From NCBI GenBank assembly GCA_002068415.1, contig MVZM01000003.1, positions 40,306 to 104,305 on the forward strand: a DNA stretch of 64,000 bases, given 5' to 3'. A program made the position numbers and the translations under genes. Every line of letters starts with the position of its first letter. Position 1 is the first letter of the stretch. Of this stretch, positions 1 through 48,944 are shown piece by piece. This DNA comes from Tenericutes bacterium ADurb.BinA124. GTDB lineage: Bacteria > Bacillota_I > Bacilli_A > ML615J-28 > CAG-698. The notes beneath the pieces were generated by a model that ran no database searches, was not told the DNA's origin, and saw only the letters and a program-made list of their open reading frames with translations.

Positions 1-802
1 TGGTAACAGTCCCGACATAATATTGACCTTCTTGAGTTAAACTCAATAAAGAAGCACCACCAAGAGCATCTTGCGTAGTAACGGCAGCTGGTACCGATAC
101 TTCTTCAACTCTAAGCGGATAATCCCCCGTTTTAACATGATAGTAATTAACGGCGCCATAAGCATTAGTTAAATCAGCGGCATCGAGAGAACCTAGTTCG
201 GTATTAGAAGCCGAAGTCGGTAACTCATAAATAATGGGGGAATCACTGGACCCAGCCTTAATTACCGAAATTCTTGTAGAGTCGGCGGCATAGTATCTTA
301 TTGCTCCAGAATCCGACGTAATTGTTTCGCCTTTTGCATTCACAAACGAACTGACATCGCAACTCCAAAGTTTACCGGTCGAAAATAGTGTTGCTTCTTT
401 CCAGTAAATAACTAGTTTTTCACTATTTTTCGTTCGTATTTTTAAATTGAATTGAATATAACCACTGGCAGCACTGTCGTCGTAACCTTTAATTGTTTTA
501 CCATCAACTGAAGTATTGGCTTGATATTTAAAACTAGGATATTGGGGGGGATAATGAGTCGATTCAATGTCATAACCGTTGAAAAGATAACCATTGATAT
601 GTTCAGTCGATAAATTTGTAAACCAGTTAATTCCATCGAGTGACATATCTAAACCTTCACCGGCTGTTACCGTAGCACTAAAGGATTCAACCTTATTGGT
701 ATTATTTAAAGTAAACCAAGCGTAAGTTGTTGTTCCTAAAATGATAGCGGAGAAGACAATTAGTAAGATAGAAATAAAAATTTTATTTGTTATTTTTGGC
801 AT
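1..802 (-). CDS. Paralog 1 of a secreted TasA/camelysin-like protein family (C-terminus beyond the window start). N-terminus: MPKITNKIFISILLIVFSAIILGTTTYAWFTLNNT.
   Basis: Open frame running off the window start. ATG at 802 is preceded by SD GGGTGG. The N-terminal K-rich, hydrophobic, GTTTxAWFT signal resembles the SipW-cognate signal-peptide class (TasA: GGTxAxFxD). Shares the ISLDG and WFT motifs with the ORFs at 901..1815 and 1847..2821. Confidence 0.55.
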   Translation of the reverse strand, partial: MPKITNKIFISILLIVFSAIILGTTTYAWFTLNNTNKVESFSATVTAGEGLDMSLDGINWFTNLSTEHINGYLFNGYDIESTHYPPQYPSFKYQANTSVDGKTIKGYDDSAASGYIQFNLKIRTKNSEKLVIYWKEATLFSTGKLWSCDVSSFVNAKGETITSDSGAIRYYAADSTRISVIKAGSSDSPIIYELPTSASNTELGSLDAADLTNAYGAVNYYHVKTGDYPLRVEEVSVPAAVTTQDALGGASLLSLTQEGQYYVGTVT

Positions 803-900
803 CTTAACCACCCTAATTCAATGTAATAAATTCAACATATTAAGAGAGAGGAGAAGTATAGAAGCCTATAATTCTCCTCTTGATATTAGAAATAGTCTAA

Positions 901-1815
901 TTATGCGTTAGTGTTTTTGAATACTAAGCCAATTGATAAAGTATCATCTAAAATAGCGTTAAAAGCATTTTGATCCCAACCTTCTAACCAAATAACGACA
1001 CTTACTGAACCGGTCCAATTTTTGGCAGCTCCTGTTAAAGTTATTAATTCATTATTGTCTAGGTCAGCTGGATCAGTAACAGTATTAGGAATAGCTGCAC
1101 CTGCAGGAACTGTTTGCACTACACCTTTAGCTGCGTTATAAGATTTTTGACCGGCTGTTAAAGCTTCTAATTCCGCTTTGCTTTTTTGCCCTAAAACAGT
1201 ATTTCCTTTAGAATCAAAATTCTCGGCTAATTCATAAATTACTGGATTATCAGCGCCGCCCTTAATAGAAATACGAGCAGCATTGGCAGCATAACGAGGT
1301 AAGTTAGCATCTCCTGCGGTTACGCTAGGAGTAGTTGCTCCAACGGCATCTGTAAAGCTAGCATCAGCTGTCCATTGTTTTCCAGTTGAAGTAATCGTAG
1401 CATTATTCCAATAAATTTTCGGAGCTATATCGGTATCATCCTTAGAACGGAAGTAAAGAGTAAATTTAATATAGTGGGTTCCAGCAGCCTCATTAACGCC
1501 TGTTGCTCCATCCATTAATGTAAAAGCCAGTCCGTCTGTCGAAGTTACTAAATCTAATTTGAAAGTTGAAGCATATTTACCAGTGCCAGCAGCGAATAAA
1601 AATTCTTCAATTTTAGCTTCAGTAAGAGTTGTATACCAATTGGTTTGATCTAATGAAATTTCAATACCTTGACCAGCGGTAACAGTTGCATTGAAAGGTG
1701 ATACAGTAGCGGTATTACTTAAAGTGAACCACGCGAAAGTAGTGGTGCCAAGAGCGATAACTGCAAAAGCGACAGTTAAGATCGAAATAAATAATTTGTT
1801 TGTTAATTTTCTCAT
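901..1815 (-). CDS. Paralog 2, secreted TasA/camelysin-like protein (304 aa). SipW-cognate-type signal LGTTTFAWFTLSNT; C-terminal motif IWLEGWDQNAFNAI.
   Basis: ORF track. RBS AGGAGA is 7 nt upstream of the ATG at 1815. N-terminal signal and C-terminal WLEGWD block are shared with neighbouring paralogs. Thr/Ala/Gly-rich mature region typical of beta-rich fibre subunits. Confidence 0.6.
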   Translation of the reverse strand: MRKLTNKLFISILTVAFAVIALGTTTFAWFTLSNTATVSPFNATVTAGQGIEISLDQTNWYTTLTEAKIEEFLFAAGTGKYASTFKLDLVTSTDGLAFTLMDGATGVNEAAGTHYIKFTLYFRSKDDTDIAPKIYWNNATITSTGKQWTADASFTDAVGATTPSVTAGDANLPRYAANAARISIKGGADNPVIYELAENFDSKGNTVLGQKSKAELEALTAGQKSYNAAKGVVQTVPAGAAIPNTVTDPADLDNNELITLTGAAKNWTGSVSVVIWLEGWDQNAFNAILDDTLSIGLVFKNTNA

Positions 1816-1833
1816 TTTTTTCTCCTATTTTTC

Positions 1834-1848
1834 TTTTTTTTTTTTTTT
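1834..1848 (-). repeat. Homopolymeric A15 tract (T15 on the plus strand) directly after the stop codon of paralog 3 and about 16 nt upstream of the paralog 2 RBS.
   Basis: Counted directly: 15 consecutive T at 1834..1848 on the plus strand. Confidence 0.9.
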
Positions 1849-2821
1849 AATCCGTGATGGACTTACCAGCCCGGAATTTTAATTGGATTCTAATTACATC
1901 ATTCACGATTGCATCGAAGCAATCTGCATCCCAACCTTCTAACCAAATATTCATGGTAACTTTACCAACATAATAAGTTTGGCCCTTACTATCTTTTTGG
2001 TCACTCACAATCAACTCCATAATCCTCGAGTTATCACTTACAGGAATGTAGGGGTTGTTTGGGGAAAATTTAGTTAGTTCATAAACCGTTTCGGGTTTCT
2101 GAGCTGGTGCTTCAATGATTCGACTCATTCGTTTACTAATGTAATCTAATGCACCGTACGAAACTCCGTATCCTCTGAGAGGATCTCCACTCGGATCAAT
2201 TATCACCTTTCTTAAAGATGAAGGAATCCGGGTGTCATAGATATTGTCATCGTGAACTTGTTCTACAAAAGCAATTCGCACTGCTTTACTAGCATAGTAA
2301 GTATTCCTTGTTCCTTCATGAACAACATCATTAATTGTATCCGTTCCATTAACGAAGGTCAGATCGGCCTTCCAACTTCTCCCGAGGGATACCACAAAGG
2401 TCCCATCACGTCCAGTATCAAATTCAACATCATTACTTATGTTATCAACGAGGTAAACAAATCGTTCAGCGGCTGTGGTGCGAAACCACATTGTGATAGC
2501 GACATAGTCACGGTTGGGGATAGCCTCCCCAAGACCGGTTGGACCTCCTGAACTGAAAGTTATACCATTGATAGAAGTAACATCATGCATTTGCAAGTTG
2601 GTTAACTGCTTAGCAATCAACTCACCCGGCAACTTGTTGTAGTAAGAAATACCATCTAAGGAAATTTGTAAGTCTTCGCCATTAGTGACATTAAGGACTA
2701 AGCCATCGGCGACACCCGTGTTGGACATCGTAATCCAAGCGAAGGTTACCGTCCCAAGCATGATTGCTGAAAGAGTAAGCGATAAAATGGATAATAGTAA
2801 TTTATTAACTAATTTGTTCAC
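1847..2821 (-). CDS. Paralog 3, secreted TasA/camelysin-like protein (324 aa). Signal LGTVTFAWITMSNT; C-terminal NIWLEGWDADCFDAI. GTG start.
   Basis: ORF track. GTG start with GGTGA SD. Same N- and C-terminal motif architecture as paralogs 1 and 2. Confidence 0.55.
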   Translation of the reverse strand: MNKLVNKLLLSILSLTLSAIMLGTVTFAWITMSNTGVADGLVLNVTNGEDLQISLDGISYYNKLPGELIAKQLTNLQMHDVTSINGITFSSGGPTGLGEAIPNRDYVAITMWFRTTAAERFVYLVDNISNDVEFDTGRDGTFVVSLGRSWKADLTFVNGTDTINDVVHEGTRNTYYASKAVRIAFVEQVHDDNIYDTRIPSSLRKVIIDPSGDPLRGYGVSYGALDYISKRMSRIIEAPAQKPETVYELTKFSPNNPYIPVSDNSRIMELIVSDQKDSKGQTYYVGKVTMNIWLEGWDADCFDAIVNDVIRIQLKFRAGKSITD

Positions 2822-2859: not shown

Positions 2860-3564
2860 CTATTCCTCAGCGCCTACAATATCAAATTTCATCTGAATCC
2901 TAATCATCCCCCCTAATATTGAATCGACACAATCCGGATCTTCACCTTCCAACCACATAATTACACTATATTTTTTATACATGTGGGGTCGGAGGTTGGC
3001 AATCTTTCCTCTCGTCACAATTTCATCATCGATGAAGTAATTAGCCTTCGGCATCTCTTTCGGGTAATCATAGGGAACCGTATCAGGCTTTTGATACAAA
3101 TACTCATCGGTATCATCTTCGATAATTAATATTCTAACGGCTTCATCAACATTTTTGTAAGTATCAGTTATTTTTAAATGATAACCAACATCCACGGTTT
3201 CACTGCCAATGTTCTTGACATAGAAGGTATAGGCAACATAACGATAATCTTCATCGATATAATCGCCATCCGTTGCTTTAATCTCCGATAGCTTTAACCA
3301 GGAATAAGTAATATCTTTCACATCGATAACGGGATTAGCTAACAATCTTGGGGAAGGAGCTAAGAATTTATCGTCACTAGAAAGGATGATGCCACGGGTG
3401 AATGAATCGGGGTCAATCGACATAACGAAGTTTCCGGCTTGTTGACCATAGAAGGTGATGATGGCAATGGCTATTGATAGAAACGCCGTAATCAGCAAAC
3501 CGATGGTCACAGCTGTTGTTCGGACAGCAAATTTTCTAACTCCAAGCATTTTGGAAAGCCGCAT
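2860..3564 (-). CDS. Paralog 4 (234 aa), first gene of the operon. Divergent N-terminus with a single TM anchor (TAVTIGLLITAFLSIAIAIITFY) instead of a cleavable SipW-type signal. Retains the family C-terminal block MWLEGEDPDCVDSI...IRIQMKF.
   Basis: ORF track. ATG at 3564 with SD AAAGGCGG. The C-terminal about 30 aa align to paralogs 2 and 3. Its position and membrane-anchored N-terminus suggest an anchoring or accessory subunit (TapA-like role, by analogy only). Confidence 0.5.
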   Translation of the reverse strand: MRLSKMLGVRKFAVRTTAVTIGLLITAFLSIAIAIITFYGQQAGNFVMSIDPDSFTRGIILSSDDKFLAPSPRLLANPVIDVKDITYSWLKLSEIKATDGDYIDEDYRYVAYTFYVKNIGSETVDVGYHLKITDTYKNVDEAVRILIIEDDTDEYLYQKPDTVPYDYPKEMPKANYFIDDEIVTRGKIANLRPHMYKKYSVIMWLEGEDPDCVDSILGGMIRIQMKFDIVGAEE

Positions 3565-3584
3565 TCAAACACCGCCTTTCTTTG

Positions 3585-3685
3585 TGGAAATAAAAAATAG
3601 CCAGTATCATTCTAATAATGACAACTGGCTACCATTTCAGGCCCTTTAGCTTTGCGTCCCTAGATTTCTCTAAGTTTGCCTTTTA
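3585..3685 (-). promoter_or_regulatory. c-di-GMP-I (GEMM) riboswitch, copy 1 (proximal to the operon), with a terminator-type expression platform.
   Basis: Minus-strand RNA: AAGGCAAACUUAGAGAAAUCUAGGGACGCAAAGCUAAAGGGCCUGAAAUGGUAGCCAGUUGUCAUUAUUAGAAUGAUACUGGCUAUUUUUUAUUU. The core GGCAAAC-N5-GAAA-N4-GGGACGCAAAGC matches the conserved GEMM-I aptamer (compare V. cholerae Vc2 GGCAAACCAUUCGAAAGAGUGGGACGCAAAGCC). It has a GNRA-capped P2 hairpin CUUAGA-GAAA-UCUAGG, then an 8-bp hairpin UAGCCAGU/ACUGGCUA followed by U6, which I read as an intrinsic terminator. Sits 20-30 nt upstream of the SD and ATG of the 2860..3564 gene. Confidence 0.8.
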
Positions 3686-3734
3686 CATATCTTCTTGATA
3701 AAAAGATAAATAAAACTTATTAAATTATATCCTT

Positions 3735-3835
3735 AAAGAAAGAAAAAAGCCAGTATCATTCTTACAATGACAACTGGCTACCATTTCAGGCCCTTTAGCT
3801 TTGCGTCCCTAGATTTCTCTAAGTTTGCCTTTGAA
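3735..3835 (-). promoter_or_regulatory. c-di-GMP-I (GEMM) riboswitch, copy 2 (distal). About 95% identical to copy 1 and also followed by a hairpin plus U-tract.
   Basis: Minus-strand RNA: AAAGGCAAACUUAGAGAAAUCUAGGGACGCAAAGCUAAAGGGCCUGAAAUGGUAGCCAGUUGUCAUUGUAAGAAUGAUACUGGCUUUUUUCUUUC. Same conserved core as copy 1. Tandem arrangement separated by about 65 nt. Confidence 0.8.
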
Positions 3836-3859
3836 CATTTTTCTATCTTAAGTGCCTCC

Positions 3860-3888
3860 ATTCTAACACACCAATAAAATCTTGTCAA
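3860..3888 (-). promoter_or_regulatory. Sigma-A-type promoter driving the tandem riboswitches and the paralog operon (-35 TTGACA at 3888..3883, 17-nt spacer, -10 TAGAAT at 3865..3860).
   Basis: Read on the minus strand: TTGACAagattttattggtgtgtTAGAAT, about 25 nt upstream of riboswitch copy 2. Confidence 0.55.
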
Positions 3889-3930
3889 CAAAAATACAAA
3901 AATAATTATAAATAGTTCAACTATAATGGG

Positions 3931-5430
3931 TTATTTCTTTTTGTCAACACTTTCTTCCGGTTCTTTTAAAAGTTTTCCCTTCCAAGATTGACCTTCGATA
4001 TAGGATTTCAAATCATCACCTGACATCGGATAACCAAAATAATATCCTTGAACGACATTAATACCAAAATTGCTAACTTTCTCCAGCATTTCGTAATTCT
4101 CCACTCCTTCAGAAATAACAACCTTTTGGTTATTACGAGCAAAACCAACAAGCAGGGTGGCAAATTTTTCCGTCATATAGGACTCTTGCGTATCGCTTAA
4201 GAAAGACCGATCCAGTTTAATGATGTCAATCGGCATTTTTTCCAGTTTGGCAAGAGTTGCAAAATCCAGACCAAAGCCGTCAATAGCAATTTTAAAACCG
4301 ACATCTTTAAGTTTTTGAATATTCACCATAATTTCATCATAGCGCTCAAACAAGGCAAACTCCACAATTTCCAAAGTGATATTGGAAGCTTGTAAACGGT
4401 ATTTGCGTAAAATCTTCAAGAAATCAGCAACCAAAGTTAAAACAATCAATTGTTTAGGGCTCAGGTTTAAGGATAAGCGTAATTCTAGTTCCGGAAAATC
4501 TTTTTTAATTTCAAAGTATTGTTTAATGAGGTTTTCAATGCCCCATAAACCAACCCAATAAATATCCCCGGATTGCTCCATGATATTGATAAATTGGTGA
4601 GGAGACAAAACACCATGTTCCGGATGATTCCACCTTAATAAGGCTTCCGCCCCATATAAAGTTCCGTCATCGACATTGATAATAGGTTGATAATAAAGCA
4701 AAAACTCTTTATTCTTCATGGCTGTTTTAATTTGATAATAATAAGCCAAGTTTTCAAATTCCGTTTCATTGATGTCTTCGGAATAGAGCATGAAATCATT
4801 TCCGCCCTTTTTCTTCAACAAATAAATGGAAATCTTTAGAGAATTAATTAATTGTTTTAAACTACTTCCATGTTTGGGGTAAAAGCAGACCGCCACACAA
4901 GCCGTGGGGGTCACAAAGGTATCACTATAAATTTTAATCGGCGTGCGAACAACTTCTAACAGTTTCTTCGCCACTTCCAAACTTTGCAAGCGGTCATAAT
5001 CACCTTTTAAGAAAACCAAGAATTCATCACCGGTTAAGCGTGCCATTTGTACACGCTTCGGCAAAACATGGCTGAGGTTTTGGGCAATTTTCTCTAAAGC
5101 CCGTTCCGCTTCCTTTTCCCCAAAGGCATTGATAATATCGGTAAATTTATCAATATCGACATAAATGAGGGCGAAGGTCGTTTCCAACGAGCCCTTGGCA
5201 ATATAGCCGGAAATGGCACTCGTCAATTCGGACTTCGACAATAAGCCTTCTAACAAAACCGTCTTCTCTTCACGGAACTTAGCTCGTTCGCGAAAAACCG
5301 AGCGAATTAAAAAATATCCGAGCGTCGCCGTAACTGCGAGGGCAATGATCGAAAAAAAGATATAGGCACCATCATTAAAGTTGGCAAGAAACATGGGATC
5401 ACCTCTTGTATATTGTATCACAATCATCAA
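3931..5430 (-). CDS. Membrane-anchored GGDEF-EAL domain protein (499 aa) with non-canonical motifs: TGDEF instead of GG(D/E)EF; EAL present (EALLRW) but DGFGLD instead of DDFGTG.
   Basis: ORF track. N-terminal TM helix; RLTGDEFLVFL; YGAEALLRW. Likely a c-di-GMP phosphodiesterase or a degenerate receptor. Confidence 0.75.
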   Translation of the reverse strand: MMIVIQYTRGDPMFLANFNDGAYIFFSIIALAVTATLGYFLIRSVFRERAKFREEKTVLLEGLLSKSELTSAISGYIAKGSLETTFALIYVDIDKFTDIINAFGEKEAERALEKIAQNLSHVLPKRVQMARLTGDEFLVFLKGDYDRLQSLEVAKKLLEVVRTPIKIYSDTFVTPTACVAVCFYPKHGSSLKQLINSLKISIYLLKKKGGNDFMLYSEDINETEFENLAYYYQIKTAMKNKEFLLYYQPIINVDDGTLYGAEALLRWNHPEHGVLSPHQFINIMEQSGDIYWVGLWGIENLIKQYFEIKKDFPELELRLSLNLSPKQLIVLTLVADFLKILRKYRLQASNITLEIVEFALFERYDEIMVNIQKLKDVGFKIAIDGFGLDFATLAKLEKMPIDIIKLDRSFLSDTQESYMTEKFATLLVGFARNNQKVVISEGVENYEMLEKVSNFGINVVQGYYFGYPMSGDDLKSYIEGQSWKGKLLKEPEESVDKKK

Positions 5431-5456: not shown

Positions 5457-8048
5457 TTATTTTTCTTTTGTTTTTGATTTCACTTTTATTTCTTTAGTTT
5501 TATTAATATTATACTCATTAATGAGTTTTAAAGCGACACTTTCGGGAACAGCGGCACTGATTAAATGCCCTTGAATGACATTACAGCCGCTTTTAACCAA
5601 AAATTGGTTTTGTTTATCATCTTCAACACCTTCCGCAATCACATCCAAGTCCAAGCTCTTGGCCATGGAAATAACTTTGGAAACAATAGCCCGCGAGAAT
5701 TTATCGGTATTGAGATGACGAACAAATTCCTTATCAATCTTAATGGTATCAATCGGTAAATCTTTTAAGTAGAGCATCGAACTGTAACCGGTCCCGAAGT
5801 CATCCAAATGAATATTAAAACCATGATTTTTCAAAAGCTTTAATTTTTCAATCACCGAGTCAAAATTAGTCATCAAGAAAGTTTCGGTGATTTCCACCGA
5901 AATGGCATGCGGTTTTAATTCAAAGCGGTCGTATATTTCCACAATCTCGCTGACAAACCCGGCTTGCAATAATTGAACTGGAGAAATATTGATGGAAATG
6001 TGCACATTATAAGGTTCAAATTCTTTCGCAATCCGGAAAGTATCTAAAATAACGAATTTACCGATTTCGATAATTAAGTTGTTTTGTTCAGCTAAGGCAA
6101 TAAAATGAGCCGGTGACTCCAATAAATACTTCGGATTATTCCAGCGAATTAAGGATTCAAAACCAACAATCCGCTCTTGTTCATTATCAAACTGCGGTTG
6201 CAAATACATGACAAATTCTTTTTCTTGAATGGCCTTGACCAAATCGGTTTCCATAATCTGTTCGCGGGTAATGTACTGTCCCAAACCGAGGTCATAAGTA
6301 ACATATTTAGCCGTCCGCGAGTTTTTGGCCCGTTTTAAAGCAACCATCGCATGATCATAAGCCATGGTTGGTGTTAAATTGCCATAGATTTCACTTTCAA
6401 TATTAAAGATTCCCATTTTCACATCCAAAATTAATAAGTTCTTATTAATTTCGACCGGATGCGCTAACAATTCGAGAGTGCTTTCCACCCATTTTTTAAC
6501 TTCATTAAAACTTTCAACGCGTTCAAACAAAACCACGAAGTTATCCGCTTCCGTATTAAAGAGCGTCGCATTCTTGTCTTTTAAGGATTCCTTAACAATA
6601 TTAGCAAGGGTAATTAAGGTTTCATCACCGATTTTCATCCCGAATAAATTATTGATGTTTTTAAAGGAACTGATATCAAAAGCAACCAAGGAATTAAGCA
6701 ATCCCAATGATTCCTCATTGTTAAACAAGTCCTTTAGTTTGGCTATTAAATAGTTTTTATTCGGTAATTTCGTCGTTTTTGTGTAGAGAGCCATATTCCG
6801 GTTCATCAAATAATCTTGTTCGCGGGCCGTAATATCTTCCCCTAACAAATAATAACCGAAGCCGGAGCGTAAGGGAATAAAGCGAATGAAGATTTCACTG
6901 CCAGAAATGGAAGTAAAGGAAGCCGTAAAGGGCCGTTGTTTGCGTAAATACGAAAGCACGGTCGTACTATCCACTTCGGTTTTAAAATCGCTTAAATATT
7001 GATAATCTTGATAGGACTGCAAATTGCTTTTACAAGTCTTATTAAAGTAGCGGATTTTCCCGCTGGCGGACACCCGAACAATATAGGGTTTGGAATAATA
7101 ATAAATCAAGCGCGCCGCTTCCACATCGGAGTTTTTCGTTCTTAGTAAATGATAAGTGCCAAATAAAACTACCGCAAACAAGAGCGCCACTAACACCAAA
7201 ACAATAATGAGCGACATCCCTAAATAACTCATGGAACTTAAAACATCAGTTTTTGCGAAAACATGGACCACAAACAAATGGCGGGTGGAAAAATCCTTTG
7301 ACAAAGGTGAATAAGCGAGGTAGGATTGTTTGCCATCAAAATTAACCATCGCTATTCCGGTTTTTCCGGCATAGAGATTGTCAACAATTTGGGCAATGTC
7401 TTCTTCGGCACTATTACCGCGGACATAATGTTCAAACAATTTATCACGGATAGTAAGGTGATCAATTTGGTAATTAATCAATCCGTCTTTACTAATGATG
7501 AAATACTGATTTTTGGGCGCATTGCTTACTTCAAGAAAGATGGGATCAAAATATTTAATGGCATCAAAAACAGCAATGTAATTGTCAATTTTGAAAAAGC
7601 CATAAAGGGTGGTATCGGTACTATCAATAAAGGCATCCGCAAACGCATAAATCGCTACCCTTTGATTATAATAGTCCGTTGACAAAAATTCTGTATTATA
7701 GAAATAATCAGTGCCATCAATAATGAAGCGATCCGCTTCCACACTACCAAAATACACATAGGGGTTGGTGCCGACCCTTATTTTCGCCTTTTGTGCATTT
7801 AATTGGCTGAGGATATCACCATCATTGGGATCGAGATTATTAATAACATCAGTTAATTTATCATAATCATAATTGATCTTTAAATCGACATTAAGGGCAA
7901 TCTTTTGATTAATGTAAAGCATGTTTTCCGCCGCTTTACCTTCGATAAAATGATCGGCAATGAAATAATAAGCTCCATAAGCGACCAAAGCGACGATTAT
8001 TAAGATGGCAGAGAACAAAATCGATATTTTAACGGTATAAGACTTCAT
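5457..8048 (-). CDS. Large membrane sensor protein (863 aa): signal-anchor, extracytoplasmic domain, second TM, degenerate GGDEF-like region, canonical EAL phosphodiesterase domain (ESLIRW...HLDDFGTGYSS).
   Basis: ORF track. EAL-domain motifs present. SD AGAGGAG 8 nt upstream of the ATG at 8048. Confidence 0.75.
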   Translation of the reverse strand: MKSYTVKISILFSAILIIVALVAYGAYYFIADHFIEGKAAENMLYINQKIALNVDLKINYDYDKLTDVINNLDPNDGDILSQLNAQKAKIRVGTNPYVYFGSVEADRFIIDGTDYFYNTEFLSTDYYNQRVAIYAFADAFIDSTDTTLYGFFKIDNYIAVFDAIKYFDPIFLEVSNAPKNQYFIISKDGLINYQIDHLTIRDKLFEHYVRGNSAEEDIAQIVDNLYAGKTGIAMVNFDGKQSYLAYSPLSKDFSTRHLFVVHVFAKTDVLSSMSYLGMSLIIVLVLVALLFAVVLFGTYHLLRTKNSDVEAARLIYYYSKPYIVRVSASGKIRYFNKTCKSNLQSYQDYQYLSDFKTEVDSTTVLSYLRKQRPFTASFTSISGSEIFIRFIPLRSGFGYYLLGEDITAREQDYLMNRNMALYTKTTKLPNKNYLIAKLKDLFNNEESLGLLNSLVAFDISSFKNINNLFGMKIGDETLITLANIVKESLKDKNATLFNTEADNFVVLFERVESFNEVKKWVESTLELLAHPVEINKNLLILDVKMGIFNIESEIYGNLTPTMAYDHAMVALKRAKNSRTAKYVTYDLGLGQYITREQIMETDLVKAIQEKEFVMYLQPQFDNEQERIVGFESLIRWNNPKYLLESPAHFIALAEQNNLIIEIGKFVILDTFRIAKEFEPYNVHISINISPVQLLQAGFVSEIVEIYDRFELKPHAISVEITETFLMTNFDSVIEKLKLLKNHGFNIHLDDFGTGYSSMLYLKDLPIDTIKIDKEFVRHLNTDKFSRAIVSKVISMAKSLDLDVIAEGVEDDKQNQFLVKSGCNVIQGHLISAAVPESVALKLINEYNINKTKEIKVKSKTKEK

Positions 8049-8191: not shown

Positions 8192-8265
8192 GCTCCTATA
8201 GTTTAGTGGTAAAACAAAGCAATGGTAATGCTTAGATCCAAGTTCGATTCTTAGTAGGAGCACCA
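8192..8265 (+). tRNA. tRNA-Thr (anticodon GGU)
   Basis: Hand-folded cloverleaf. Acceptor GCTCCTA/TAGGAGC (7 bp), D-stem GTTT/AAAC, anticodon stem AAGCA/TGCTT with loop AUGGUAA (anticodon GGU), T-loop TTCGATT, 3' ACCA. One C-A mismatch in the T-stem. Confidence 0.8.
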
Positions 8266-8276: not shown

Positions 8277-8310
8277 AAACAACCCCTTTTGATAGGGGTT
8301 GTTTTTTTTT
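8277..8310. terminator. Bidirectional rho-independent terminator (AACAACCCCT-loop-AGGGGTTGTT followed by T9), shared by tRNA-Thr (+) and the antiporter gene (-).
   Basis: 10-bp perfect stem with a flanking U-run seen in the sequence. Confidence 0.8.
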
Positions 8311-9508
8311 AGGCTAAATTAGGTATTTCCTGGGCCTTTTTCAAAGTTATTTTGGTAATAATCGGACCAACCAGTTCATAAACCAAGGTTGCTGCCAACA
8401 CAATCGTGCGGATTTGGGAACCCATCTCAGGATTAAGAATTTGGGTCGCAATGAGGCTTAAACCGATGGCCACCCCGGCTTGGGGAATCAAAGTAAAACC
8501 TAAGTATTTCGCAATCTTAGGATCCGCATGGGTTACTTTGCTGCCAAACCAAGCCCCGAAGATTTTACCGGCAACCCGGGTGATGATATAAACAAGACCA
8601 ATAATACCGACAATCTTGAGGATTGATAGCTTTAATTCCGCCCCACTTAAAACAAAAAACATCATGAAAATCGGTGGGGTAATATAATGGGTTAGTCCGT
8701 TCACCTCATCATAATCCTTGCTGATGTTGGCAAAAAGACCGCCAAAGGCCATGCAGGCCAACAAAACCGAACCGCCTAAATAATCAGTTAAAAAGATAGT
8801 TAAAAAGACAAAGGCTAAAGTTAGAGAAATCCGATTACCGCGATTGGAAAACCACTTACAAGCAAAGTTTAACACAATCCCAAAAAAGGCGCCAATGCCC
8901 AAAGAAAAGATGATTTCCCAAATCGGTTTAATGATTTGAATGAACAGGGAACTATCACCATTGCCCCCTAAACCGTTGGCAATCGCCACATTGATGCCAA
9001 ACAGCATTAAGGCCACCGAATCATCAAGGGCCACGACGCTCATTAGCATTTCCGTAAGCGGTCCGGAAGCCCAGTATTGCCTCACCACCATTAAGGTTGC
9101 GGCCGGTGCGGTCGCCGCAGCAATCGCCGATAACACCAAGGAAAAGCGAATATTCGTTAAATCGAGCGTTCCTTTAATAGCAAAGAAAACAATTAAGCCG
9201 CCAAAAACAAACAACACGGCAAATAATGATTCAAAGATGGCAATTACAATCGGTCTCGTCCCGACTTTTTTAAAATAGCTGAGCTTTAATTCATTGCCAA
9301 TGGAAAAGGCAATAAAACCGAGGGCAACTTGCGAAACCAAATTTAAGGAAAGCAGTTGATCTTCGCCAACCAAACCGAGGACACTGGGACCAATAATTAA
9401 ACCACCAACTAAATAACCGGTAACATTCGGTAAATGTGAGTATTTAGCTAATTTACCAAACAAAAGTCCGGTTACTAAAACAATCCCCGCATATAATAAA
9501 ATATCCAT
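8309..9508 (-). CDS. Monovalent cation:proton antiporter, CPA2 family (Kef/NapA-like), 399 aa, about 12 TM segments.
   Basis: ORF track. N-terminal LPNVTGYLVGGLIIGPSVLG is a typical CPA2 signature. Polytopic membrane protein. Confidence 0.75.
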   Translation of the reverse strand: MDILLYAGIVLVTGLLFGKLAKYSHLPNVTGYLVGGLIIGPSVLGLVGEDQLLSLNLVSQVALGFIAFSIGNELKLSYFKKVGTRPIVIAIFESLFAVLFVFGGLIVFFAIKGTLDLTNIRFSLVLSAIAAATAPAATLMVVRQYWASGPLTEMLMSVVALDDSVALMLFGINVAIANGLGGNGDSSLFIQIIKPIWEIIFSLGIGAFFGIVLNFACKWFSNRGNRISLTLAFVFLTIFLTDYLGGSVLLACMAFGGLFANISKDYDEVNGLTHYITPPIFMMFFVLSGAELKLSILKIVGIIGLVYIITRVAGKIFGAWFGSKVTHADPKIAKYLGFTLIPQAGVAIGLSLIATQILNPEMGSQIRTIVLAATLVYELVGPIITKITLKKAQEIPNLA

Positions 9509-9510
9509 AG

Positions 9511-9846
9511 CTACTTCTTATACCCTTTTACATACTCAATATTAAGCGTAAAAACAATGCCAGAATTCGGTTTGGATAAATCACCGGCTAAACGATCAAT
9601 TATATCTAAAACCCTTGGCACTTGTTCATCTTCCAAAGCCATCAAAATAACTCGTGAATCCGTCCTTGGCGTATCAAAGATGGCTTTTAAGGACCCGATA
9701 ATATCAAAGTTATCGCTTTCAACTAATTTTCTACCCATCCCCGTACTGTTTAAAATCGTGGCGCCTCTAATTTGCGCATCTTTCAACTCGTGAACAAAGC
9801 GGTCTAAAAGATTAACATTATTCATCACATAAACTAACAGTTTCAT
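9511..9846 (-). CDS. PII-like signal-transduction protein of the PstA/DarA type (putative c-di-AMP receptor), 111 aa. Translationally adjacent to the antiporter (2-nt gap).
   Basis: MKLLVYVMNNVNLLDRFVHELKDAQIRGATILNSTGMGRK aligns by eye with B. subtilis DarA [36 protein letters not shown]. The size matches PII-like c-di-AMP receptors. Confidence 0.5.
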   Translation of the reverse strand: MKLLVYVMNNVNLLDRFVHELKDAQIRGATILNSTGMGRKLVESDNFDIIGSLKAIFDTPRTDSRVILMALEDEQVPRVLDIIDRLAGDLSKPNSGIVFTLNIEYVKGYKK

Positions 9847-9899
9847 ATTTACCTCACTTGTCTTTATTCATTATACCCCGATGTTAGCTTGATAGCAAT

Positions 9900-13545: not shown

Positions 13546-13929
13546 TATGAATCTGATGATGGAGCAACTCATATTGAAGTAAAGTTGGAAGATGATAATA
13601 TTTGGTTAACTCAGCAACAAATGGCTGAACTTTTTAGCACTTCTAGGCCCAATGTAGTTATTCACATCGGAAATATCTATTCTGAGGGGGAACTTGATAA
13701 AATTTCAACCTATAAGAATTTTAAACAGCTTCGAAAAGAAGAAAATAGAATGGTTGAAAAGGAGATACCTTTTTATAATTTTGATATGATTATTTCTCTG
13801 GGATATAGAATTAAATCATCTTTAGCCATTAGATTTAGAATATGGGCAACTGAAAAACTTAAAGAATATATGATTAAAGGTTTTACAATGGCATCTTCAG
13901 CAGAAATTATCATTAATTCACTAATGTAA
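13546..13929 (+). pseudogene. Truncated RhuM-family (virulence protein RhuM-like) gene fragment. Corresponds to residues about 20-135 of the intact paralog at 28012..28725. Unrelated C-terminal tail.
   Basis: MNLMMGATHIEVKLEDDNIWLTQQQMAELF...MIISLGYRIKSSLAIRFRIWATEKLKEYMIKGFTM aligns almost residue-for-residue with the 237-aa protein at 28012..28725 and then diverges and terminates. Confidence 0.7.
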
Positions 13930-16789: not shown

Positions 16790-19348
16790 TTAAGCATCTT
16801 CTTCCATTAATTCAATAAATAAGGCGGCTAAATAAGGATCAAACTGCGTTCCCGCACAAGCTTTGATTTCCGCTAAAGCTTCTTCCGTTGTTTTGGTGGG
16901 ACGGTAGGAACGCTCTTGGGTCATGGCATCGAAAGCATCAACAATGCTGATGATGCGTGATAAGAGGGGAATTTCTTGACCTTTTAAACCTTGTGGATAG
17001 CCGGAACCGTCCCATTTTTCATGATGAGACAAAACATACTCGGCAATCGAACTCAGTTCCGGTGATGCTTTGGTAATGCGGTAACCAATTCCCGGATGTT
17101 TTTTGATTTCCTCCCATTCCGTAGCATTCAATTTCCCCGGCTTATTTAAAATATTACTATCAATGCCGACTTTGCCAATATCATGAAGCGTTGCCAATAA
17201 GGATAATTCATCAAGACCTTTTTGATTAAGGCCGAGTTTCTTGCCAACTCTTTCGGATAAAAGCCGCATTCGTTCCGCATGAGCTTCTGTTTCTTGGCTC
17301 TTTTCAAACATGGTGGCGGTAATGGACGAGACGAAGGAACTATGTAAACTGTTTCGTTCCAAGAGTTTGCGCTTATACATAAAATCTTCTGCTGTTTTTT
17401 GTACATTACTAATACTTTCCGTTACGCTTTCTTTAGTTGCAAAGCCCAAGGAGAGACTAATAATTGAACCTTTGCCGAGAGTATTGCTTTTATCTTTATC
17501 ACAGCGATCTTGAATCTTTTTTAAATAATAATAGGCGGTTTCGCTATCCGTATTCGGTAAAAGAACGGTAAATTCATCGCCTCCGGTGCGGGCGACCACA
17601 TCATCTTCTCGAACGGAGGTTTTGATAATTTCCGCTGTTCTTTTTATTAAGTAATCACCTTCATCATGACCAAAGGCATCATTGGTTAGTTTTAAACCAT
17701 TGATATCAGCAACAATAATCGACAATGGTAAATACTGTAGATGGTCTAAGCGGGCGCGTTCTTTATCAAAATACCCCCGATTATAAAGCCCTGTCAACAT
17801 ATCATGTTCACTCATATATTGGATTTCAATTTGTTTGCTTTTTTGTTCACTAATGTCAAGGATAAGTCCTTCTAAAGATTCCACAAATCCCATTTCATTA
17901 TAAACCGGTTGCCCTTGTTCAAGAACCCATTTTCGTTCTCCAGTGGCGGTGACAATGACGAACTCTTCCCGCACTGCTTGCCGATTTTTGACGGCATCAC
18001 CCCACACTTGCCACAAATGTTCTTGAAACTCGGGGGCAATTAATTCATTGAACGAAAGATCCCGATTATTGATGATGTTTTCCGGGCGATGGCCGGTTAA
18101 TTCGAAACATCCTTCCGACACAAATTGCATCGTCCAATTGCGATCAAAATTGCATTTATAAGCCATTCCCGGCAAATTAGATAACAAAACACTATGACTG
18201 TGAACACTTTCTTTCAACTGTTTTTCAACGGCTTTACGTCGCGTAATATCAAAGAAAGTAACCACGACGCCGGTAATTTGACCTTGTTGGAAAAGGGGAT
18301 GAGCAAAAACTTCAACACTGAAACTCGTGCGGTTCTTCCGCCAAAATACTTCTTTGTCTGAGTAAAAACCGGCTTTGGTTTTAAAGACTTGTGTAATTCC
18401 ACATTCTTCAACGGGAATTATTTGATTGAGAACATTATGGTGGTGGAAGAGTAAATGGGCATTTTTGCCAAGCAAATCACTTTCCCGTTCGTAACCAAGC
18501 AAGCGACGACAAATGAGATTACAGAATTTAATATTTCCTTCCAAATCAATAACAAAAAGGGCGGCAGTGGTGGTATTAAAAATGGATTTAAAAAATTCTT
18601 CGTTGCTGAAAAAATGACCGGGGGATGATGGGTTTTTCTTTAACAATTGAATATGAGCAATTAAACCCCTTACTTTTCCGGAAGCATTGCGCAAGTAAGT
18701 AATCTTATGAGAAGTAAGCAACGAAGTTTGGTTTTTATGAATCATTTCCACTTCCAATGTAAAAGGTTTTTCATCTTCATGGCCGTGGTCATCTTCAAAG
18801 AGTTGCATAAATAATGTTAGGGAAGAAACTGCAATTAAATTAAAAATGCTTTTTTGTTTGATTTCTTCCACCGAATAACCTAATAAAGAAACAACACCCG
18901 GACTAGCATAAGCGATTTGGTAATCGTTCCGGACAATTAAACTCATTTCGCCACTTTCTTCATAATCATGGTCGCTTAATTGATGGCTAATTTCTTGGTA
19001 ACAAATAATGACTTGATTTTTCTTGATTGATGAAGCACGCGCAAAATAATAAATCTTACTAAAGGCCGAATAACCTTTAAACTGCTTTTGGGTTTTGGTG
19101 TTTACCACTTCACAAAACTGCTTCCACAATTCCCATTCATCGAAAAAATCATTAAAGACCGCTCGACCTGCTTTTTTTAACACATGACTTCTATTTAAAC
19201 CCCAAAAGCCAAGCATGGTTTCATTGATTTCTAAAAAAGAAAAATCAATAATTTTAGATGCTTGTTTTTTCACCTTTAAAATAGCTAAACCGATGTCGTT
19301 TTCGCCAAACAATTGCTTCCATTGTGAAGATTTCATGATGTACCTCAT
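16790..19348 (-). CDS. Cytoplasmic multi-domain c-di-GMP protein (852 aa): PAS/PAS - GGDEF (RTGGDEFTVLL, canonical) - HD-GYP (HHEKWDGSGYP).
   Basis: Motifs read from the translation. No TM segments. Confidence 0.85.
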   Translation of the reverse strand: MRYIMKSSQWKQLFGENDIGLAILKVKKQASKIIDFSFLEINETMLGFWGLNRSHVLKKAGRAVFNDFFDEWELWKQFCEVVNTKTQKQFKGYSAFSKIYYFARASSIKKNQVIICYQEISHQLSDHDYEESGEMSLIVRNDYQIAYASPGVVSLLGYSVEEIKQKSIFNLIAVSSLTLFMQLFEDDHGHEDEKPFTLEVEMIHKNQTSLLTSHKITYLRNASGKVRGLIAHIQLLKKNPSSPGHFFSNEEFFKSIFNTTTAALFVIDLEGNIKFCNLICRRLLGYERESDLLGKNAHLLFHHHNVLNQIIPVEECGITQVFKTKAGFYSDKEVFWRKNRTSFSVEVFAHPLFQQGQITGVVVTFFDITRRKAVEKQLKESVHSHSVLLSNLPGMAYKCNFDRNWTMQFVSEGCFELTGHRPENIINNRDLSFNELIAPEFQEHLWQVWGDAVKNRQAVREEFVIVTATGERKWVLEQGQPVYNEMGFVESLEGLILDISEQKSKQIEIQYMSEHDMLTGLYNRGYFDKERARLDHLQYLPLSIIVADINGLKLTNDAFGHDEGDYLIKRTAEIIKTSVREDDVVARTGGDEFTVLLPNTDSETAYYYLKKIQDRCDKDKSNTLGKGSIISLSLGFATKESVTESISNVQKTAEDFMYKRKLLERNSLHSSFVSSITATMFEKSQETEAHAERMRLLSERVGKKLGLNQKGLDELSLLATLHDIGKVGIDSNILNKPGKLNATEWEEIKKHPGIGYRITKASPELSSIAEYVLSHHEKWDGSGYPQGLKGQEIPLLSRIISIVDAFDAMTQERSYRPTKTTEEALAEIKACAGTQFDPYLAALFIELMEEDA

Positions 19349-20143: not shown

Positions 20144-20809
20144 TTACCCCTTTTGCGAATTCACATAGTGATTGAATTTCGCAATCTTCGCCGTGGCCCC
20201 AAAAACATAAATATGATCATTGGGCATAATGCTGTCACTGGCTTTAGGCAGCAAGGACAGTTGGTCCCGTTTAATCAATAACAAGTTGACATCAAAGCGG
20301 TTGCGCGGATTTAACTCTTGAATATTGAGGGGGGTGATGTCGCTTTCAATCGATATTTCCGCAACCGAAAATTCAGTATTGATATTAAAATAATCAACAA
20401 AGGTATCGGCAACAATTTTATTGGCCAAGCGCACACCGGCAATTTTTTGGGGGGAGACGATATCCGTGGCCCCCAGTTTTTTCATCACGGACACATAGAA
20501 TTCATCATCAACCCGCACCGTTATTTTAGGAATCCCCATTTCCTTTAAAATAATTGTCGTTAAAATGGTGTTTTGGAGGTTGGAACCAAAGGCAATAACG
20601 GCATGGTCGACATTGTGTACCCCTAATTCTTTTAAAGCGGCTTCGTTTGTAGAGTCACAAACAAAAGCGCTACTAACAAATTCGCTCGCCTTAACAACAT
20701 TTTCCTCCATAACATCAATGGCAATGATATCAACATTGTGCATACTTAATTCTTCAATTAATTTCAGGCCAAAACGGCCCAAGCCTAAAACGGCAAAGGA
20801 TTTTTTCAT
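20144..20809 (-). CDS. ktrA: K+ uptake regulatory subunit, TrkA/KtrA family (RCK_N + RCK_C), 221 aa
   Basis: AVLGLGRFGLKLIEEL Rossmann motif. The size matches KtrA/KtrC. Confidence 0.75.
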   Translation of the reverse strand: MKKSFAVLGLGRFGLKLIEELSMHNVDIIAIDVMEENVVKASEFVSSAFVCDSTNEAALKELGVHNVDHAVIAFGSNLQNTILTTIILKEMGIPKITVRVDDEFYVSVMKKLGATDIVSPQKIAGVRLANKIVADTFVDYFNINTEFSVAEISIESDITPLNIQELNPRNRFDVNLLLIKRDQLSLLPKASDSIMPNDHIYVFGATAKIAKFNHYVNSQKG

Positions 20810-20830
20810 ATGAACCTCCTAATGTAAATT

Positions 20831-22162
20831 CTATCCGATAATCATTTTTTCTTCAAGGTACTTAATGCCGACATTGGCATCAATATTCCAATTCCGGTTC
20901 CAAGCACTGATAATCGTAATCGGCCCTAAACGCCCAAAAAACATCGTTAAACAGATGATTAATTTACTGCCCCAAGTTAAATGAGCTGTAATCCCCATCG
21001 AGTTTCCTACCGTCCCAAAGGCGGAAAAGACTTCGAAAACAATTCGTTCTAAATTGTCGGTCGTAGCTGTCGCTAATAAATGCTTTTGTTCGGTCAATGT
21101 TAAAGCAAAAATAGCCAAAAAGATAAATGTTAAGGAAAAAACCACTAAAATAAAAGCTTTAATGACACTGCCAGTAGCAATCCGTCGTTTGAAAGTAAGC
21201 GGTAAGCGACCACGAGCAAAGGAACTGATATATTTAATAACGGTATAAAAGGTGGTCGTTTTAACGCCACCACCGGTGGAAGCGGGTGAAGCACCAATAT
21301 ACATTAGAGCCATTACAACAATTAAAGCACTGCTGGTGATGGTGTTAAAGTCTACGACAGCGAAGCCGGCCGTTCTGGCTGCAACACTGGTAAAGAAAGC
21401 TTGCATCCAAGTGATATTATTCCATTCCAACAGTTTTAAAATAAGTGCCCCAAAAACAATTAAGCACAGCGATGTTAACAACACAATCTTGCTATGAACA
21501 GATAATTTTTTCCAGGATTTATTGGTAATAATGTCATTAATGACAATGAAACCAATTCCCCCAATCACGATTAAAACAGCCGTGTTAATTAAAAGGAGGG
21601 GATTTTGATAAGGTATGAGGGAAGTTCCTTCAGTAAACAAATCAAAGCCGGCATTATTAAAAGAGGATATGGCATGAAAAACACTGATTCCTAAAGCCTT
21701 CCCAAAGGAAAAATACCTATTAAATACTAAAAAGTTAATAATGGCACCCAATGTTTGCACAATTAAAGTAACAAAAACAGTAAAGCGCACCAGTTTAACG
21801 ATCCCTTTTAAGGAGTTTTGATTTAAAGATTCCTTTATTAAGAAACGATCCTGAATCCCAATCTTTAATCCTAACAGCGTGAAAATAAAGATAACAATCG
21901 TCACAAAGCCCAAACCGCCAATTTCCATTAAGATGGCAATGACGATTTTCCCAAACAAGGTATAGGTCCCGGCTAAAGTGGGGACGGCGGATAAACCCGT
22001 CACACAAACCGCACTGGTAGCGGTAAATAAAGCATCAATATAGGATAAGGAAACATGATTGTAAGTTGCGAAAGGAAGCATCAACAAAAGCGAGCCGATT
22101 AAAATAAGGCCGATAAACCCCAAGATAATGATAACATAAGGCGAGATTTTTTTCTTATTCAT
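20831..22162 (-). CDS. ktrB: K+ transporter membrane subunit, TrkH/KtrB family (443 aa)
   Basis: Polytopic, with repeated GxG-containing pore-loop motifs (GFAVVD, GFDLF). Adjacent to ktrA. Confidence 0.75.
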   Translation of the reverse strand: MNKKKISPYVIIILGFIGLILIGSLLLMLPFATYNHVSLSYIDALFTATSAVCVTGLSAVPTLAGTYTLFGKIVIAILMEIGGLGFVTIVIFIFTLLGLKIGIQDRFLIKESLNQNSLKGIVKLVRFTVFVTLIVQTLGAIINFLVFNRYFSFGKALGISVFHAISSFNNAGFDLFTEGTSLIPYQNPLLLINTAVLIVIGGIGFIVINDIITNKSWKKLSVHSKIVLLTSLCLIVFGALILKLLEWNNITWMQAFFTSVAARTAGFAVVDFNTITSSALIVVMALMYIGASPASTGGGVKTTTFYTVIKYISSFARGRLPLTFKRRIATGSVIKAFILVVFSLTFIFLAIFALTLTEQKHLLATATTDNLERIVFEVFSAFGTVGNSMGITAHLTWGSKLIICLTMFFGRLGPITIISAWNRNWNIDANVGIKYLEEKMIIG

Positions 22163-22254: not shown

Positions 22255-22290
22255 TACAAAAAAAGGGTCATTTTGACCCTCTTATCCAAC
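22255..22290 (-). terminator. Terminator of the pot operon (AGGGTCA-AAA-TGACCCT followed by U7 on the minus strand).
   Basis: Seen in the sequence. Confidence 0.75.
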
Positions 22291-23415
22291 TTTAACATTG
22301 TTAACCATCGTAATAATGGACGCTAAATACTCTCTCGAAAGATTAGTTAGCGGGGTGCCTTTAAATTGCACAAGGTCTGTTGGCAATGGTTTCGGATAAT
22401 ATTTTAAATTAGCTTGCGCCCATGCTTTCAACCAAGGATCATCGCCTTGATAGCCGACAATTTGGTCATAAGCTTTTAAAACGGGGGTGCAGTAGCCCAC
22501 AACACTGGCATTTAAGTAAGCAATTTCCGGTCGCAACATGAAATCAATAAATTTATGGGCCAATTCCACATTATGAGCGTTTTTCGGAATAACCAAGCCA
22601 TCCATAAAGGCAATCGTATCTTCCGGAATATAAATATCGAATTTGACTTTGCTGGGATCGGGATTAACATCGAGTTGTTGGTAATAAACATCTAAGAAAT
22701 CCCCCGTCCAAACAAAGGCTAAATCTAAGTTATTGGCAACAATCGCTTTTTTCAGAGTATCCGTTCCCCATTCCGCAAACTCCCGCTTTCTTAACGTTGT
22801 TTCCGCAAGCGCCAAAGCCGTACTTGATTCTTCGTTGACACTTAAGCCGTTATAAAGCATCGCCGCAGCATAAGCATAGCGGGGAATATTATACATCCCT
22901 ACTTTCGTCCCGCTGGGAACTTTGTCCACATCAAAGAAAGCACTCCAAGCGTTCGCAAGCACCGCTTCTTCCAAGCCCGCTTTTTGTTTATTATACATTA
23001 AGCCCCAAGTTCCCCAAAAATAAGGAACGGCATATTCTTCATTCCCGCTAAACATGGCTCCTTGGATTCCTAAAACCCCGGGCATCAAGGGATTATTAAC
23101 AGGATCATAATTGCTTAATTTAGTTAAATCAATTTTTTGGAGTAAACCATCATTCTTCATCTTCTCAATCATATATTCGGAAGGCACCGCAATATCATAA
23201 ACAGTGGTCGCATTGTCAATTTTTTCATAGAAACCTTCATTGCTCTCCACATAAGTCGGAACAACCCGAACATGATACTCTTGTTCAAAGCGGCTTACCA
23301 CTTCATCATTGATATATTCGCCCCAGTTGAGAAGCATTAATTTTTCCGAACCGGAACAAGCCGAGCTCACTACCAATAACCACAGCGAAATTAAAAAAAC
23401 ACTAATTTTTTTCAT
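22282..23415 (-). CDS. potD: Spermidine/putrescine ABC transporter substrate-binding lipoprotein
   Basis: Lipobox LVVSSAC. PotD-like binding protein. Operon order potA-B-C-D. Confidence 0.8.
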   Translation of the reverse strand: MKKISVFLISLWLLVVSSACSGSEKLMLLNWGEYINDEVVSRFEQEYHVRVVPTYVESNEGFYEKIDNATTVYDIAVPSEYMIEKMKNDGLLQKIDLTKLSNYDPVNNPLMPGVLGIQGAMFSGNEEYAVPYFWGTWGLMYNKQKAGLEEAVLANAWSAFFDVDKVPSGTKVGMYNIPRYAYAAAMLYNGLSVNEESSTALALAETTLRKREFAEWGTDTLKKAIVANNLDLAFVWTGDFLDVYYQQLDVNPDPSKVKFDIYIPEDTIAFMDGLVIPKNAHNVELAHKFIDFMLRPEIAYLNASVVGYCTPVLKAYDQIVGYQGDDPWLKAWAQANLKYYPKPLPTDLVQFKGTPLTNLSREYLASIITMVNNVKVG

Positions 23416-27100: not shown

Positions 27101-27555
27101 ATGTCAACTTGAAATTGACCACCTAGCGGTTTAACCACTCCTTGTTTAAGAAATTTATTATGTCCCCACGGTATTCTTAGTATTGGTGTTTCAAATTCCA
27201 CCCCAGCTTGGGGTAAATTCAGCACATTTGGATATAATTCGTAAAACCAAACCATATAGCGTAAATTTGTGACCGAAAACGACTTTACATCCAGCAGAAG
27301 TTCTGTTAAATCCTTACTGACATTATTATAAAAATCAGTACCATAGAGTGATGTTCTATTCATCGATGCAATATCTCTGCCGAGTATCCAATAAAACTGA
27401 AGCATTTGGTCGTTCACTTTAACAGCCACTTTTAATTGGCTTTTTCTAAATGCCTTGCTGATGGATTGAATCCATCCACGATAATATTCATCCTTCTTTA
27501 TCAATTCACTTACGAATCTACCTCCAAGCATTTTAACTTTTCTATGAAATCGCAC
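27085..27555 (-). pseudogene. Second, divergent YhcG/DUF1016 N-terminal fragment (156 aa)
   Basis: KVAVKVNDQMLQFYWILGRDIA...NLRYMVWFYELYP...IPWGHN follows the DUF1016 N-terminal domain pattern. No nuclease domain. Confidence 0.5.
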
Positions 27556-30612: not shown

Positions 30613-30624
30613 CTTGTTCTCCTT

Positions 30625-33902: not shown

Positions 33903-33912
33903 AAACCCTCCT

Positions 33913-48943: not shown

Positions 48944-48944
48944 G

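Follow-up and report, generated by a model that had tools for sequence, protein, structure and literature searches.

A distinct PII-like protein subfamily encoded with a cation/proton antiporter in Bacillota

In the 64,000-nucleotide (nt) stretch of the Tenericutes bacterium ADurb.BinA124 genome analyzed here (assembly GCA_002068415.1, contig MVZM01000003.1, positions 40,306 to 104,305; hereafter, the window), a minus-strand gene encoding a 111-residue protein (9511..9846) is followed after a spacer of 2 nt (9509-9510) by a gene on the same strand for a 399-residue cation/proton antiporter (CPA; 8309..9508), as determined from the list of open reading frames (ORFs) and the sequence itself. We find that the small protein represents a distinct PII-like subfamily, neither DarA/PstA nor GlnB/GlnK, and that its gene is paired with that of a CPA antiporter far beyond chance. 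A PII-like regulator encoded with its transporter is a kind of arrangement that is already known; new here is a PII-like subfamily encoded with a CPA antiporter. We consider it fairly probable that the small protein is a dedicated ligand-sensing trimer of the PII type, co-translated with an antiporter that lacks an RCK domain, and that it docks on this antiporter via its T-loop. An earlier sequence-only reading of the locus had reported the same two ORFs, 2 nt apart at 8309-9846, had taken the small protein for the cyclic di-AMP (c-di-AMP) receptor DarA, and had suggested that DarA may regulate the antiporter directly. The genetic coupling of a PII-type regulator to the antiporter stands, but DarA is not that regulator, and as this assignment fails, the finding says nothing about DarA's partner. 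A false lead is thereby removed: the missing partner of DarA/PstA is not revealed at this locus.

The small protein and its relatives

The 111-residue protein matches a single Pfam family, P-II (PF00543), over its full length and marginally (30.1 bits, cutoff 25), and it has no Pfam match to CdAMP_rec (PF06153), so that the identity with DarA/PstA (DUF970) proposed by the sequence-only reading is not borne out at the family level. Among relatives tested in the same way, 42 of 42 match PF00543, and five show a faint match to CdAMP_rec (best E 0.023). Neither of the NCBIfam equivalogs comes near its cutoff: the DarA model (NF058593) reaches 14 bits (cutoff 140), and the P-II model reaches 15 bits (cutoff 181). 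The DarA alignment made by eye in that earlier reading reflects a generic likeness within the PII superfamily, with the R..T..TGG spacing shifted by one residue and STGMG in place of TTGGFL. A GlnB-type PII, which that reading had named as an outcome that would speak against it, is borne out by half: the PF00543 match is present and the canonical GlnB/GlnK motifs are absent.

The AlphaFold2 monomer model of the protein (predicted local distance difference test, pLDDT, 84) displays the fold of the PII superfamily, a ferredoxin-like core built from two beta-alpha-beta units. The T-loop, between beta2 and beta3, spans residues 35-63 (29 residues, modeled with low confidence), and the B-loop, between alpha2 and beta4, spans residues 88-95 (8 residues). 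This combination of a long T-loop and a short B-loop is the layout of canonical PII and the reverse of that in PstA/DarA, in which a short T'-loop carrying the motif TKLxxxGGFLxxGNTT is combined with a long B'-loop (PMC4316997). Foldseek placed GlnZ, GlnB, and GlnK at the top of the structural matches and PstA at rank 19. When the family profile was compared with characterized proteins using hhalign, it aligned with E. coli GlnB at 48% probability over 93 columns, with S. aureus PstA at 23% over 31 columns (query in part confirmed by primers given in PMC4316997), and with SbtB at 15% over 92 columns (query 100% identical to 6WUE). A direct sequence search of the PDB with the PII-like protein returned only a spurious match to ExoS, and real matches came with profiles. 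The protein is about equally remote from all characterized PII branches, with canonical PII the nearest.

Conserved positions were examined as column frequencies across 215 family members, with the correspondence to canonical PII taken from alignment. The signature of the subfamily consists of G28-A-T30, S34, G36-M37, DD..FIGSL[RK] in the T-loop, G88-D-L-x-x-P-N-S-G96-I97 in the B-loop, and an invariant G108. Residues that line the nucleotide cleft in this fold are kept (G28 in 96% of members, T30 in 99%, G36 in 100%, and G96 in 93%), and the T-loop is unusually conserved, with the consensus E-x-D-D-x-x-[FI][FI]-G-S-L-[RK]-x-[LF][FL]-D-x-P-R, in which [RK]54 is found in 88% and L53 in 79% of members. 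The phosphate-binding residues of canonical PII are not kept. The B-loop reads G-D-L-x-x-P-[ND]-[TS]-G where canonical PII has the ATP motif TGxxGDGKI; the position of Lys90 is occupied by Ile or Val (residue 97) in 92% of members; Arg101 aligns to the invariant Gly108; the position of Gln39 (residue 40) is variable; and the Y51/S49 modification site is absent from the family alignment. [quoted passage not shown] The beta2 region reads [KR]-G-A-T-I-L-N-S-T-G-M-[AG]-R-x-L, sharing with the DarA motif only the Thr and one Gly, and neither GGFL nor GNTT is present in the family alignment. Family scores, reversed loop lengths, and missing motifs together rule out membership in the DarA/PstA family.

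The subfamily is large. An exhaustive profile search recovered 1245 representatives of clusters formed at 50% identity with E<=1e-3, and 533 with E<=1e-10, while a scan of one genome per species gave more than 506 confirmed matches. Members were found in Izemoplasmatales, Acholeplasmatales/Acholeplasmataceae, Mariniplasma, unclassified Bacilli, and Clostridia, the last including Oscillospiraceae, Christensenella, and the cultured species Ligaoa zhengdingensis and Zongyangia hominis. Most are labeled 'hypothetical protein' at NCBI, and some are labeled 'nitrogen regulatory protein PII' at JGI.

The antiporter and the pairing of the two genes

The protein encoded downstream had been described as a Kef/NapA-type CPA2 antiporter, and a NapA-like antiporter with CPA2 features is confirmed. 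Its sole Pfam domain is Na_H_Exchanger (PF00999, E 1.6e-30), and neither Pfam nor the AlphaFold2 model (pLDDT 80) shows an RCK/KTN or other cytoplasmic regulatory domain in its 399 residues. The model is all-helical with a NapA-like 13-helix fold, and the best Foldseek match is NapA (5bz2, E 7e-11, template modeling score 0.72-0.75), followed by SOS1, PaNhaP/MjNhaP1, NHA2, and KefC. The Asp-Asp motif that the CPA2 type carries in transmembrane helix 5 (ALDDS, D162-D163) is invariant, as are R311 and K315 in the region of transmembrane helix 10. From what is known of NapA, the Asp pair together with R311/K315 points to an electrogenic, NapA-like exchanger; K+ and Na+ are not distinguishable as its substrate from sequence. 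At the sequence level the protein is divergent: phmmer against the PDB gave no match, the family profile matched only PaNhaP, a CPA1 member (2e-5), and the CPA2 model TIGR00932 gives 35 bits, below its cutoff of 238.

The two genes look like a self-contained bicistronic operon, because a promoter-like site and a ribosome binding site lie upstream and a hairpin lies downstream. On the minus strand, a consensus scan identified TTGCTA-17 nt-TATAAT (9870..9898, 10/12 matches) between the hairpin and T-run of the ferritin gene further upstream (about 9900-9940, by reading of the sequence) and the ATG of the PII-like gene at 9846, which is preceded at a distance of 4 nt by the Shine-Dalgarno sequence GAGGT (9851..9855, likewise read from the sequence). 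A terminator scan found a GC-rich hairpin (8277..8304) in the interval that separates the antiporter stop (8309) from a tRNA gene in convergent orientation (8192..8262, plus strand, Rfam scan). The hairpin was called on the plus strand with an 11-bp stem and a T9 tail; in the minus-strand direction, TTTAAATT comes after the same stem, as read from the sequence. The hairpin is probably a bidirectional terminator common to the antiporter and the tRNA gene. Both the promoter and the terminator calls are consensus matches only, of a kind that the scans yield no less often in shuffled sequence.

Conservation of the gene pair was assessed in 80 retrieved loci, each from the genome of a different species. 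The orthologue of the window antiporter lies immediately downstream of the PII-like gene in 71 of these, and a PF00999 gene of any kind adjoins it in 73 (91%), in agreement with the conservation across genomes that the sequence-only reading had named as a check. As a genome holds, by our estimate, only a few PF00999 genes among a few thousand genes, such pairing is far beyond chance. Two variants indicate that the association is with CPA antiporters in general rather than with a single orthologue or gene order. At one locus (L071), the order is inverted, with the antiporter (3515..4780) preceding the PII-like gene (4806..5147) on the same strand. At another (L079), the PII-like gene (49..381) is followed 150 nt downstream by a different, more canonical Na_H_Exchanger (532..1866, 444 residues, 210 bits). 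In 57 of the 61 loci at which both genes are complete, the intergenic distance is between -8 and +21 nt. The pair is kept at 41-47% identity in Candidatus Syntrophonatronum and Zongyangia, where every flanking gene is different, and paired loci with unrelated flanks are spread over Izemoplasmatales, Acholeplasmatales, and Clostridia. Between loci, the identities of one protein correlate with those of the other (r=0.76, pairwise matrices), as expected for a pair inherited as a unit. No published account of the PII-like/antiporter pair was found in a full-text search of open-access papers and bioRxiv.

A branch of orphan loci, at which no antiporter adjoins the PII-like gene, hints at a second target or at a differently organized system. 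Three of four such loci from metagenome-assembled genomes of Clostridia (L059, L062, L069, and L073) adjoin genes for an alanine racemase and an ABC transporter. Four relatives listed without locus context (P0113, P0127, P0131, and P0140) read GIGGATIIESSG, and three of them have a charged C-terminal tail of 40-50 residues.

Proposed regulation and competing explanations

In the GlnK-AmtB and SbtB-SbtA complexes, T-loops insert into the cytoplasmic cavity of the transporter, and a comparable arrangement can be proposed here. The PII-like protein would assemble as a PII-type trimer, and a small molecule, most probably a nucleotide that contains adenine, would fill the inter-subunit clefts lined by G28-A-T30, G36-M37, and the backbone of G96. 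Binding would set the conformation of the long conserved T-loop, which would dock on the cytoplasmic side of the antiporter, or reach into it, and thereby gate cation/H+ exchange, the direction of this regulation being equally conjectural. The PII-like protein would thus provide in trans the input that KefC, CpaA, and KhtU receive from RCK/KTN domains or subunits. The glycines conserved at the cleft positions are suggestive of such trimer clefts, and on present evidence an adenine nucleotide of some kind is the rather probable ligand.

Several points weigh against this scheme. We infer physical contact between the PII-like protein and the antiporter by analogy with the complexes named above, and the symmetry of the partners differs: CPA antiporters of solved structure, NapA and KefC among them, form dimers, and PII proteins form trimers. 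As AmtB and SbtA are trimeric, the GlnK/SbtB paradigm carries over only imperfectly to this pair. In addition, seven of the 80 loci are orphans without an adjoining antiporter, so the PII-like protein may have other or additional targets. Nor was a fusion of the two proteins found in the one long protein among 150 listed PII-like relatives or in the 120 best antiporter homologues, none of which carries a second domain. The long protein (P0197, 422 residues) was rejected as a fusion; judged by eye, it consists of a PrmC/HemK-like methyltransferase followed by a PII-like domain (302-412), with no transporter, and is most likely a gene-calling run-on rather than a real fusion. Finally, K90, R101, and R103, the phosphate holders of canonical PII, are gone from the family, which makes ligand binding itself an assumption. 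SbtB likewise lacks Lys90 and binds nucleotides, and loss of this residue does not exclude nucleotide binding.

The identity of the ligand divides the explanations that share this architecture. If it were specifically c-di-AMP, a PII-like receptor other than DarA would switch a K+/Na+ exporter on or off and would take the place of RCK_C, the domain through which characterized Firmicute K+/H+ exporters receive c-di-AMP input. We regard this as possible and, on balance, unlikely. In its favor, SbtB, which has a transporter as its partner and the sequence G-I-I-Y at the position of Lys90 where the window protein has G-I-V-F, takes up c-di-AMP in the canonical cleft; in Bacilli, c-di-AMP stimulates CpaA and KhtTU, both of them CPA2 exporters; and a protein that has lost the residues for a triphosphate could still accept a nucleotide that is cyclic or has a single phosphate. 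However, the family has neither a positive sequence signature for c-di-AMP nor the PstA-type motif, the hhalign probability for SbtB is low, and a different adenine nucleotide, or a ligand that is not a nucleotide, would fit just as well. The known ligands of SbtB include AMP, ADP, ATP, and cyclic AMP (cAMP) as well as c-di-AMP. The window, moreover, is visibly rich in cyclic di-GMP (c-di-GMP) rather than c-di-AMP signaling. No c-di-AMP (ydaO) riboswitch lies 5' of the operon or of ktrAB, as an Rfam scan gave only c-di-GMP-I riboswitches and tRNAs, and no diadenylate cyclase or phosphodiesterase was found in a Pfam scan of 46 ORFs of the window. More speculatively still, the pair could exemplify a third PII/transporter paradigm, in which a second-messenger nucleotide (c-di-AMP, cAMP, or another) causes a T-loop tipped with Lys or Arg to plug or release a CPA2 antiporter. 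The RCK-less antiporters of wall-less and anaerobic Bacillota would then receive regulatory input in this way, across the mismatch of a trimer on a dimer; we view this extension as doubtful.

Alternatively, the two genes could be co-expressed without contact between their products, the PII-like protein being either a soluble sensor that acts elsewhere, for instance on an enzyme or on transcription through a regulatory factor, or else an accessory with a structural or chaperone-like role. The symmetry mismatch and the lack of fusion proteins among the inspected matches fit this explanation, canonical PII and SbtB each have several targets, and the seven orphan loci keep the T-loop motif GSL[RK], so that comparing orphan with paired members does not show the motif to track the antiporter or otherwise. 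Set against it, near-overlapping or overlapping stop and start codons persist across classes of Bacillota and in unrelated neighborhoods, and adjacency survives both the inverted gene order and the replacement by a different CPA member described above. We consider this alternative quite unlikely.

It is very improbable that the protein is simply a nitrogen-regulatory PII of the GlnB/GlnK type beside which the antiporter lies by happenstance: PF00543 is its only Pfam family above threshold, some members carry the JGI label, and GlnZ, GlnB, and GlnK are its best structural matches, but the Pfam score is marginal and the equivalog score remote, TGxxGDGKI is replaced by LxxP[ND][ST]G[IV], Q39 is variable as aligned, R101 is replaced by an invariant Gly, the modification site is absent, and at the loci inspected no amtB, glnA, or nif context accompanies a gene whose partner in 91% of loci is an antiporter. 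Equally, there is very little chance that the protein is a DarA/PstA orthologue and the antiporter its long-sought target, given the absent or faint family matches, the short and weak alignment to PstA, a 29-residue T-loop with an 8-residue B-loop, the lack of GGFL and GNTT, on which c-di-AMP binding depends, and a window in which an Rfam scan found no c-di-AMP riboswitch and a Pfam scan of 46 ORFs no cyclase or phosphodiesterase.

If docking of the PII-like protein on the antiporter is correct, PII control would extend to CPA antiporters. Few signal processors are as widespread as PII proteins, and few of their transporter partners are mechanistically understood (AmtB, SbtA, and, among ABC transporters, NrtBCD and Pot). 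The cytoplasmic pH and the levels of Na+ and K+ are set by CPA antiporters, usually under the control of fused or accessory RCK/KTN domains, and little is understood of the control of the many bacterial members without RCK. A compact two-gene module present in hundreds of species is a candidate regulator for them, and it offers a defined T-loop motif and a small soluble protein for work on the ligand.

Genomic surroundings and comparison with known systems

Directly 5' of the operon lie genes for a ferritin (PF00210; 9953..10474, minus strand) and, beyond it, a CitMHS/ArsB-type anion transporter (PF03600; 10552..11829, minus strand), both assigned by Pfam; these neighbors are not conserved at other loci. 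The ktrAB genes, which the sequence-only reading had placed nearby at 20144..22162, are confirmed by their Pfam domains on the minus strand (ktrA with TrkA_N and TrkA_C, 20144..20809; ktrB with TrkH, 20831..22162), and 5' of them is a potABCD-like ABC importer (SBP_bac_8, two BPD_transp_1, and ABC_tran with TOBE_2 by Pfam; 22282..26314, minus strand).

Enzymes of c-di-GMP metabolism are unusually dense within 40 kb. Pfam assigns two GGDEF-EAL proteins (3931..5430 and 5457..8048), a PAS-PAS-GGDEF-HD protein with HD_5 (16790..19348), and a GGDEF protein (39551..40738), all on the minus strand, and one GGDEF-EAL gene lies just past the tRNA gene downstream of the antiporter. This neighborhood is not conserved at the other loci examined. 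Two tandem c-di-GMP-I riboswitches (3617..3690 and 3766..3839, minus strand; Rfam, 64 and 60 bits, gathering score 35) are followed by three consecutive minus-strand ORFs of 234, 324, and 304 residues (2860..3564, 1847..2821, and 901..1815) without Pfam matches, an arrangement suggestive of an operon under c-di-GMP control in a genome of the Bacilli that resembles those of Mollicutes.

Elsewhere in the window, RhuM-family fragments, one a truncated and one a full copy, and a DUF1016_N fragment (13585..13929, plus strand; 27085..27555 and 28012..28725, minus strand) are probably what is left of a mobile element that had integrated; a tRNA gene lies near them (29034..29105, minus strand, Rfam scan). 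A histidine-utilization cluster (29210..35454, minus strand) encodes HutH, HutU, an amidohydrolase that is likely HutI, FTCD_C, and a formate/nitrite transporter. An alpha-glucan cluster (43199..61018) encodes amylases, glycogen phosphorylase, 4-alpha-glucanotransferase, and pullulanases, together with a maltodextrin-type ABC importer that has a 795-residue permease. The gene content of these two clusters suggests a saccharolytic, amino-acid-fermenting lifestyle.

Among characterized systems, DarA/PstA shares with the window protein the PII superfamily fold, a Thr in beta2, a similar-looking C-terminal G-x-x-V-F-x-x-P-V/I-D, and an origin in Firmicutes with a possible tie to K+ homeostasis. 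It differs in its reversed loop lengths, in the GGFL, T28, and N41 that c-di-AMP binding by PstA requires (PMC4316997), in the family models that recognize it, and in having no conserved transporter neighbor or known partner; its targets are still listed as unknown in reviews of 2023 and July 2026. PII-NG/DUF3240 and CPII, encoded near RND metal-efflux or DAB/bicarbonate systems, belong to other Pfam families, have other partners, occur mostly in Proteobacteria, and show no sequence-level match.

GlnK-AmtB differs from the pair described here in that the window protein is without TGxxGDGKI, R101/R103, the Y51 modification site, and, as aligned, Q39, and in that the T-loop of its family is about five residues longer than that of GlnK and carries a different conserved motif. 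Its partner is an antiporter, without nitrogen context; inspection of the window and of other loci showed neither amtB nor glnA. The likeness to SbtB-SbtA lies in a small PII-like protein with a long T-loop, whose gene shares an operon with that of a secondary transporter, and extends to the canonical Lys90 position, which is Ile in SbtB and Ile or Val in the window family. The operon of SbtB, however, contains SbtA, and SbtB ends in a C-terminal R-loop with the motif CGPxGC, whereas the window protein is partnered with a Na_H_Exchanger and ends in KGYKK, without a Cys pair. On the side of the transporter, KhtT-KhtU, KefF/G-KefC/B, and CpaA likewise combine a CPA2-type antiporter with a separate or fused cytoplasmic nucleotide-binding regulator, in Bacilli with c-di-AMP as the signal, a role that the PII-like protein may fill by analogy. 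The antiporters of these systems are only distant kin of the window antiporter (KefC at Foldseek rank 15; TIGR00932, 35 bits), and the putative regulator in the window has the PII fold where those systems use RCK/KTN or flavodoxin-like proteins.

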